A stretch of 64,000 bases of DNA, taken from the NCBI GenBank assembly GCA_964407735.1, contig CAYOWS010000012.1:28853-92852 (forward strand). The letters are read 5' to 3'. Position 1 is the stretch's first letter, and every line of letters begins with the position of its first letter. Below are positions 15,125 to 15,368 of the stretch, one piece after another. Source of the stretch: an uncultured Sphaerochaeta sp. (lineage in GTDB: Bacteria; Spirochaetota; Spirochaetia; Sphaerochaetales; Sphaerochaetaceae). A program made the position numbers and the translations under genes. A model generated the notes under the pieces. The model was not told the DNA's origin. It did no database searches and saw only the letters and a list, made by a program, of their open reading frames with translations.

Positions 15125-15152
15125 TTGACAGCGATATTTATTGGCTTAAAAT
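15125..15152 (+). promoter_or_regulatory. Strong sigma-70-type promoter
   Basis: TTGACA (15125-15130), 16-nt spacer, TAAAAT (15147-15152). Confidence 0.55.
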
Positions 15153-15162
15153 AGTATTCACT

Positions 15163-15309
15163 ATGAGCGATAAAATTACTGGCGCCATTCTTGGATTGTT
15201 GTCCAAAATTGTTTCCTCTATACAGCATGCCCTGTTTGGTAGGGTAGCAGATACCTCTCTCTCTCTCTCTCTCTCTCTCTCTCTCTCTCTCTCTCTCATA
15301 GCTCATTAG
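15163..15309 (+). CDS. Hypothetical 48-codon ORF (or non-coding RNA) containing the (CT)n tract
   Basis: The ATG lies about 4 nt after the predicted TSS and has no SD. The peptide is MSDKITGAILGLLSKIVSSIQHALFGRVADT(SL)7IAH. The unit is bounded by the promoter at 15125 and the terminator at 15341. Confidence 0.3.
   Translation: MSDKITGAILGLLSKIVSSIQHALFGRVADTSLSLSLSLSLSLSLIAH
15255..15297. repeat. (CT)21.5 dinucleotide microsatellite
   Basis: 43 uninterrupted nt of alternating C/T, read directly from the sequence. Confidence 0.99.
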
Positions 15310-15340
15310 AAGTCCATAAACTGATCTCATCGATTACGTC

Positions 15341-15368
15341 ACCCCTACTTCGTGGTAGGGGTGTTTTT
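15341..15368 (+). terminator. Rho-independent terminator
   Basis: acccctac-ttcgtg-gtaggggt followed by gttttt. Confidence 0.7.

Follow-up and report, generated by a model that had tools for sequence, protein, structure and literature searches.

What could a long and perfect dinucleotide repeat be doing between a strong promoter and an intrinsic terminator, just ahead of a gene for a probable lipoprotein? This question is raised by a 64-kb stretch of DNA from an uncultured gut Sphaerochaetaceae (contig CAYOWS010000012.1, positions 28,853 to 92,852; the whole stretch is referred to here as the window), in which a (CT)21.5 tract is embedded in a short leader open reading frame (ORF), the leader is followed by a terminator, and the terminator by the lipoprotein gene. 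We conclude that the CT tract probably makes the lipoprotein phase-variable, and we give a probability of about one half to the reading in which this is accomplished by a leader-peptide attenuator, with the ribosome deciding whether the terminator acts, of the type described for the pil1 locus of Streptococcus gallolyticus. The pil1-type design would then have been reached independently in a spirochaete.

The elements of the locus are listed in Table 1. On both strands of the window the promoter is the single sequence that matches at least 11 of the 12 consensus positions, a score for which shuffled sequences give 0.57 matches; its spacer (15131-15146) is free of any repeat, and transcription is predicted to start at about 15159-15160. 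The leader ORF encodes the peptide MSDKITGAILGLLSKIVSSIQHALFGRVADT(SL)7IAH, and the CT tract within it is the sole dinucleotide repeat of at least five units that our own scan detected in the 64 kb, and the presumed site of slipped-strand hypermutability. The stem of the terminator (15340-15363) has 10 bp, six of them G-C, and a 4-nt loop, and in the consensus scan it is followed by TTTTTGTG; the hairpin has a folding energy of about -20 kcal/mol (z = -2.65 against shuffled sequences), is still present when the entire leader is folded, and would act as an attenuator. The original prediction, made from the letters of the sequence, had described the promoter, the perfect 43-nt repeat, the terminator, and an ATG at 15163 that opens a 48-codon frame for this same peptide without a Shine-Dalgarno sequence; the consensus scan, Tandem Repeats Finder (TRF) and the ORF list agree with it on each of these elements.

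Table 1. Features of the leader, the terminator and the lipoprotein gene, in window coordinates.
Feature	Position	Strand	Basis or remark
Low-GC segment with the CT unit and the lipoprotein gene	14782..17312		2,531 nt, GC 0.42 vs 0.53 in the rest of the window
GCGATATTT motif, copy 1	14922..14930	+	Motif count
Sigma-70-type promoter TTGACA-16-TAAAAT	15125..15152	+	11/12 consensus positions
Leader ORF, 48 codons as assembled	15163..15309	+	ORF list and frame table
Perfect (CT)21.5 tract within the leader ORF, coding (Ser-Leu)7	15255..15297	+	TRF, 100% matches
Two TAG stops in different frames, immediately 3' of the CT tract	15299..15309	+	Sequence, frame table
Third frame, open for 29 codons	15300..15389	+	Ends at TGA 15387-15389; frame table
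Intrinsic terminator, hairpin CACCCCTACT-TCGT-GGTAGGGGTG then TTTTT	15340..15368	+	Scan, fold
Shine-Dalgarno sequence AAAGGAGA of the lipoprotein gene	15477..15484	+	5-6 nt before ATG 15490
Lipoprotein gene, 573 aa	15490..17211	+	ORF list; signal peptide MKKNRLLTVSAFLAITMAVMLVFTG followed by C

The mini-unit formed by promoter, leader and terminator (15125-15368) has no recognizable relatives in the collections that were searched. With E values up to 10, the Rfam search of positions 14000-16000 gave no match overlapping it, and the four matches obtained were all outside the mini-unit, with E values of 1.8-7.9 and far under the gathering scores. Pfam gives no match for the leader peptide, a 60-residue query from which the Ser-Leu repeat was removed finds no homologue, and the exact 27-nt pattern formed by the left flank and the tract was not found in the JGI metagenome contigs. 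Two minus-strand ORFs that cover the CT tract (94 and 53 residues, with Glu-Arg repeats) were discarded as genes because they have neither start signals nor a gene context.

The effect of tract length on the leader was determined by rebuilding and retranslating it with -4 to +4 CT units, n being the assembled length. A change of a single 2-nt unit shifts the leader stop, which ends at 15301, 15309 or 15389. In the length class n the leader stops at the TAG in 15307-15309 and in the class n+1 at the TAG in 15299-15301; in the classes n-1, n+2 and n-4 the frame passes through the two arms of the hairpin and through the T run as far as the TGA in 15387-15389, with a product of 74 residues for n-1. 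Both TAG codons are at least 30 nt upstream of the hairpin (30 nt separate the end of the TAG at 15309 from the start of the stem at 15340). The hand translations of the original prediction, according to which one additional unit leads to an early TAG and the loss of one unit to reading through the terminator, were reproduced by this computation.

The same table restricts the ways in which the tract could influence the downstream gene, which most likely starts at the ATG in 15490. None of the tract frames reaches the lipoprotein ORF, since all of them stop by 15389; thus, the tract cannot be a translational switch of the type found in oipA and sabA of Helicobacter pylori. As the -10 hexamer precedes the tract, tract length leaves the promoter spacing unchanged. 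With promoter spacing and a translational switch out of consideration, the terminator is the remaining link between the tract and the lipoprotein. A scan for the sigma-70 consensus revealed no promoter of this kind in the 120-nt gap (15369 to 15489) that separates the terminator from the lipoprotein gene, so that the gene appears to depend on read-through. The hexamer TTGATT at 15450 was considered as part of a second promoter and rejected, since there is no acceptable -10 hexamer at 16-18 nt from it.

The switch that we propose would operate as follows. The tract would gain or lose units by slipped-strand mispairing at replication. The strong promoter at 15125 would transcribe the leader ORF, and the terminator would separate it from the lipoprotein gene. 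In two of the three length classes, including the assembled one, the leader would stop at either TAG, 30 nt or more ahead of the hairpin, which would then form; most transcripts would end at about 15368, and the lipoprotein would be OFF or low. With a tract of the third class (n-1, n+2, and so on) the frame is open across the hairpin to the TGA in 15387-15389, and a ribosome trailing the polymerase would block the formation of the hairpin, so that transcription would enter the lipoprotein gene, which would be ON. The predicted switch is tri-phasic, one of its three classes being ON, and the assembled allele would be in an OFF or low class. We infer four elements of this scheme: that the tract varies in length, that the leader is translated, that the terminator functions, and that the ribosome overrides it. 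A 43-nt repeat would be tolerable in the leader because the peptide would have no function of its own to preserve, and the pil1 repeat of S. gallolyticus, with 110 nt, offers a parallel. The original prediction of a phase-variable element tied to the lipoprotein is in part supported, by the anatomy of the locus and by the simple-sequence tracts of the lipoprotein family described below. Its suggestion of a spacer-length switch for read-through, one of three modes that it left unranked, comes closest to the attenuator proposed here; nonetheless, the variable would be the leader frame in relation to the terminator and not the length of a spacer.

An attenuator of this type has been characterized in S. 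gallolyticus by Danne et al. (2014; PMC3894217), with the pil1 locus made up of a promoter, a leader ORF of 22 GCAGA units, a stop codon, a hairpin and the pilus operon. The pil1 repeat has 110 nt and the leader stop is placed 39 bp before a hairpin of -18.7 kcal/mol; pil3 is built alike, from 13 units, a gap of 33 bp and a hairpin of -28.2 kcal/mol (PMC3894217). In pil1, an out-of-frame change in the number of units lets the leader end inside the hairpin or beyond it, the ribosome prevents termination and the expression of pili is high; mutation of the ATG, insertion of stops and deletion of the hairpin all behaved as this model predicts, and most isolates with a leader stop 28 nt or more ahead of the hairpin show low expression (PMC3894217).

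The locus in the window shares with pil1 and pil3 the order promoter, repeat-containing leader ORF, terminator and gene for a surface structure, here all on one strand. In both cases the repeat is long and perfect, its unit is not a multiple of three, and approximately 22 repeats are present in pil1 and in the window. In the assembled leader, 30 nt separate the stop from a hairpin of about -20 kcal/mol, and the corresponding values in the pil loci are 33-39 nt and approximately -19 to -28 kcal/mol. As in pil1, the stop of the n-1/n+2 class lies beyond the hairpin; in contrast, the n+1 class stops earlier, so that one of the two out-of-frame classes crosses the hairpin. The locus also differs from pil1 in the repeat unit (CT, 2 nt, instead of GCAGA, 5 nt), in the 31 non-repeat codons ahead of the tract, in the absence of a Shine-Dalgarno sequence before an ATG that is nearly at the predicted transcript start, in the phylum (Spirochaetota instead of Bacillota), and in the target, a beta-helix lipoprotein instead of a sortase pilus. 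Given that there is no sequence homology between pil1 or pil3 and the window, which is known from its sequence alone, the likeness would be a case of convergence. In the pyrBI attenuator of Escherichia coli the leader ORF also spans the hairpin and a closely following ribosome prevents termination; in that system the switch is physiological, through pausing that depends on uridine triphosphate, and not a heritable frame change as is proposed for the window.

Several points weigh against the attenuator. The leader ATG is not preceded by a Shine-Dalgarno sequence and is about 3 nt from the predicted transcription start, so its translation would need to be near-leaderless or independent of such a sequence, and this is the least secure step of the model; in pil1 the ATG is preceded by a recognisable ribosome-binding site, and its mutation abolishes the high state (PMC3894217). 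In a crude count, a Shine-Dalgarno-like motif precedes 29 of the 40 long ORFs of the window; with about a quarter of them lacking it, starts of the other kind are not rare in the window. The probability that a 31-codon frame is open, based on composition, is about 0.14, and that of a given alternative frame being open across the hairpin about 0.25; the geometry of leader and terminator taken alone could arise by chance in a few per cent of cases. Furthermore, the promoter scan was limited to the sigma-70 consensus, the unitigs (k=31) available for the locus break within the CT tract and give only a lower bound of about 30 nt for its length, and neither the JGI contigs nor the homologue query gave a relative that carries this leader.

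A rival explanation involves Rho. If the leader is poorly translated or not translated at all, Rho could load at the tract and stop transcription before the lipoprotein gene, instead of or besides the hairpin, and termination would rise with tract length as in a graded rheostat; if the leader is translated, its frame would set how far the RNA downstream of the tract is shielded by ribosomes. The transcribed (CU)21 run would be rich in pyrimidines, unstructured and almost ideal for the loading of Rho; it has a YC at every step, and 5'-YC is what the primary binding clefts of Rho recognise (PMC12360218); in addition, the centroid fold leaves the tract unpaired, and the missing Shine-Dalgarno sequence of the leader fits with this idea. 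There are precedents, given that Rho attenuation dependent on an upstream ORF and invertible elements with a Rho utilization (Rut) site in one orientation are both known (PMC12360218). In the fim switch of E. coli and the flgB switch of Clostridioides difficile, phase variation results from selective Rho-dependent termination (PMC12360218); as proposed here, a stochastic DNA change in the leader decides if the structural genes are transcribed, but these switches rely on a site-specific inversion that exposes the Rut site and involve neither a simple-sequence repeat nor an intrinsic terminator. We consider a role of Rho unlikely, since the strong intrinsic terminator 43 nt after the tract makes it unnecessary, and a graded effect of length leaves without explanation the two stops that follow the tract and the third frame open across the hairpin. 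In a variant of this idea, also rather improbable, the (CU)n run would be the effector itself, a heritable Rho-loading site or RNA element of tunable length; the number of repeats would set the amount of transcription that arrives at the lipoprotein gene, and the leader frame would do no more than modulate the shielding by ribosomes. We know of no description of a Rut site built from a simple-sequence repeat that serves as a mutational rheostat.

A further proposal of the original prediction was that the transcript is a CU-rich RNA able to pair with purine-rich Shine-Dalgarno sequences such as that of the lipoprotein gene. Such a regulatory RNA would act either in cis, on read-through transcripts, or in trans as a terminated RNA of about 210 nt. 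In the minimum-energy fold of the leader, part of the tract is indeed paired with the AAGGGAAAAGGAGAUGGAAAUG region, and the energy of this duplex (-13.9 kcal/mol) is among the best 2.7% of the 36-nt windows of the window sequence. However, the Shine-Dalgarno sequence and the AUG have a mean unpaired probability of 0.36 if the tract is removed and of 0.40-0.41 if it has 20-30 units, and their accessibility is equal at 20.5, 21.5 and 22.5 units; cis pairing as the basis of a switch was rejected on account of this indifference to tract length. Folded as a whole, the leader does no better than shuffled sequences (z = -0.07), and in the centroid the tract is unpaired. As G is the only partner of C, the match of (CU)n to GGAGA is limited to about 5 bp, and no Rfam family was matched. 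Altogether, a regulatory RNA of this type is very unlikely.

It was also proposed that the unit encodes a variable small peptide. In this case the mini-unit would be a gene of its own, whose product, an amphipathic peptide, varies in its C-terminus (46-48 or about 74 residues), and the lipoprotein would be transcribed separately. The cassette of promoter, ORF and terminator is complete, 120 nt separate the terminator from the next gene, and, as read by eye, the hydrophobic residues among the 31 N-terminal ones are spaced as in an amphipathic helix. Set against this, the peptide has no homologue, Pfam match or Shine-Dalgarno sequence, so that the open frame itself is all that speaks for it; the lipoprotein gene has no promoter-like site downstream of the terminator, and the presence of simple-sequence switches in nine of 10 other lipoprotein loci makes the neighbouring gene the likelier object of the tract. 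A peptide gene of this kind is therefore unlikely, and the attenuator remains our preferred reading.

These other loci were found through the lipoprotein itself. No Pfam family is above the threshold for the 573-residue product, a word-indexed search of 5.8 billion proteins matches only the protein itself, and its use as a query finds nothing in the JGI metagenome contigs; a full HMMER scan of 1.84 billion representatives detected 33 distant relatives, with 26-39% identity. A model built on 19 of these relatives (pLDDT 79, pTM 0.76) predicts a right-handed parallel beta-helix that is preceded, at the N-terminus, by a small beta-sandwich. The best matches of this model in the PDB are phage tailspikes and fibres, a rhamnogalacturonan lyase and a GH87 glucanase, with low TM scores that allow a fold class to be assigned but not a function. 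The protein would be exposed on the cell surface, and it belongs to a previously unnamed family of beta-helix lipoproteins from host-associated bacteria.

The DNA around 10 distinct homologues (loci L006-L017) was retrieved and each locus was scanned for repeats. In eight of the 10, a tract of G8-G10 was observed, always at the 5' end of the gene, and the locus has no other long G/C homopolymer. In five of them (L007, L009, L010, L011 and L012/L013) the G tract is in the spacer between the -35 and -10 hexamers and abuts the -10 hexamer, for instance TTGACA-N7-G10-TACTCT and TTGACA-N9-G9-TATGCT. In the other three it is located within the signal-peptide codons; the frame is broken at the tract in L006 (G8) and L015 (G10), where the normal signal peptide and lipobox are off the frame of the start codon, and it is intact in L008 (G9). 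A ninth locus (L016/L017) has an A9 tract in the promoter spacer (TTGCAC-15-TATAAT), and the repeat scan found no such tract in L014. The loci L012 and L013, which encode the same protein in two samples, were aligned over 5,604 nt with no substitutions and a single gap, G8 against G9, a direct case of polymorphism in tract length. The copy in the window has no homopolymer, its only repeat being the CT tract. As judged from these tracts, the lipoprotein family would be phase-variable almost wherever it is found.

In five loci (L009, L010, L012/L013, L014 and L016/L017) a gene of about 190 codons is placed directly upstream of the lipoprotein gene, and this gene is assigned to the TP_0126 family in L009 and, weakly, in L010; neither a TP_0126-like gene nor a paralogue of the lipoprotein was found in the window or in the loci of three related genomes (L001-L003). 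Switches of the poly-G type, with the tract in the promoter spacer, are known from Treponema pallidum for tp0126 and the tpr genes (tprE/G/J, tprF/I and tprL; PMC7864442). As in these switches, a simple-sequence tract would control the gene for a surface protein of a spirochaete in the window, and the G tract in the spacer, next to the -10 hexamer, recurs in the homologue loci L007 and L009-L013, often with a TP_0126-family gene in the operon. Unlike them, the tract of the window is a dinucleotide located downstream of the promoter, within a leader ORF, and the 16-nt spacer is repeat-free. Another likeness is with oipA, sabA, hopZ and babB of H. pylori, in which a CT unit is also read as Ser-Leu codons and slipped-strand events switch surface proteins; the repeat is in this case in the signal-peptide codons of the regulated gene itself, the switch is translational, and the tracts are two to three times shorter than the one in the window.

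There remains the reading in which the tract has no regulatory role, either because it is a neutral microsatellite on horizontally acquired low-GC DNA, with its position a coincidence, or because its length is an artefact of assembly. This reading has to be weighed with the assembly data. The locus is present in three gut-metagenome runs of one study, in the form of k=31 unitigs only. The left unitig (20,073 nt) terminates 29 nt into the CT tract, and the right one (14,354 nt) begins 26 nt before its end; the depths of left and right unitigs are similar in each of the three runs (48.7/40, 55.3/48.3 and 53.8/46.3). In three related genomes the left flank (an RND pump and a 97-residue ORF) adjoins the right flank (mntP and an Rrf2 regulator), which indicates that both unitigs belong together and that the join is not chimaeric. 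The tract has at least about 30 nt, because a shorter one would have let the unitigs join. No RNA run that contains the region was found. In two runs (X1 and X2) there is also a loose end at window position 15272, where another contig that ends in ...GATTATGAAAAGAAGACGT runs straight into a CT tract; it reads ATG AAA AGA AGA CGT (CT)n, resembles the start of a signal peptide, and may belong to another gene or organism.

Some of these data agree with a neutral tract, namely that the segment is foreign to the relatives, that (CT)n k-mers from other sources are plentiful in the source metagenomes (depth 330-430, against 40-55 for this genome), and that the frame statistics are modest. Nonetheless, synteny and depth place both flanks in one genome, neither the remainder of the 64-kb window nor 147 kb of related loci has another perfect dinucleotide tract with more than 20 units, an uninterrupted perfect tract argues for ongoing turnover or selection, and the context of the family points to simple-sequence switching. 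A tract without a role thus seems quite improbable.

The low-GC segment that carries the CT unit is located between the convergent 97-residue ORF and mntP and contains, besides this unit, a single gene. It has no counterpart in L001, L002 and L003, which come from metagenome-assembled Spirochaetota (a Sphaerochaetaceae bacterium, a "Spirochaetales bacterium" and a "Spirochaetes bacterium") with RND pumps 79-84% identical to the one in the window; in these genomes only 50-314 nt separate the 97-residue ORF from the convergent mntP. Its absence from three relatives suggests a strain-specific acquisition. No convincing terminal repeats and no mobility genes were seen in the segment, and the plasmid collection gave no match. 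The 97-residue ORF itself (14488-14781) overlaps the stop codon of the RND pump gene (ATGA), is conserved in the three relatives (79-83% identity at the nucleotide level), and matches no Pfam family.

Within the segment, the motif GCGATATTT had been noted by the original prediction after the TTGA at 15125 and 15450 and once more upstream, and these copies were all located, the upstream one at 14922. The second copy (15131-15139) is right after the -35 hexamer and the third (15456-15464) right after TTGATT, both on the plus strand; two copies thus directly follow a TTGA(C/T)(A/T) hexamer. The window has four copies, against 0.46 expected, with three on the plus strand within 540 nt and the fourth (40502-40510) inside a coding gene. 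A 27-nt direct repeat (D1) is 70% identical between its copies, and the motif may be the site of a regulator or the trace of a duplication.

Other observations were made elsewhere in the window. A second stretch without a match in L001-L003 (18568-20293) includes a gene with Fic/DOC and DUF4172 domains on the minus strand (18618-19859), and at this place L001 has other genes, among them a gene for 259 residues preceded by a G8 tract (L001 15739-15746). Tandem arrays of 51 nt x 2.6 and 23 nt x 3 are present in a low-GC stretch (39203-39336 and 39434-39502), just upstream of a gene for an ATPase that resembles AAA_14/DUF4143 (approximately 39579-40838); a gene assigned by Pfam to AAA_14/DUF4143 is also found directly 3' of the lipoprotein homologue in L009. 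Finally, a 69-nt unit is repeated 2.6 times, with 81% identity, at 54368-54547, inside a long ORF (53924-55063).

Within the literature that could be searched, phase variation by means of a leader peptide and a terminator has been demonstrated only in S. gallolyticus, and the locus described here would be another instance of this rare kind of switch and not a new category. If the reading is true, an unrelated gut spirochaete with a different repeat would imply that the logic of this attenuator evolved more than once, and that such switches can be found from the sequence alone, the signature to search for being a repeat unit that is not a multiple of three, in a short ORF that, depending on the frame, stops upstream or downstream of a terminator. 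Genes of one and the same kind are preceded by three different switch designs. This association with switches would mark the lipoprotein family as variable surface antigens or factors that interact with glycans, and would make it a natural set of cases in which to study how one type of switch is exchanged for another.

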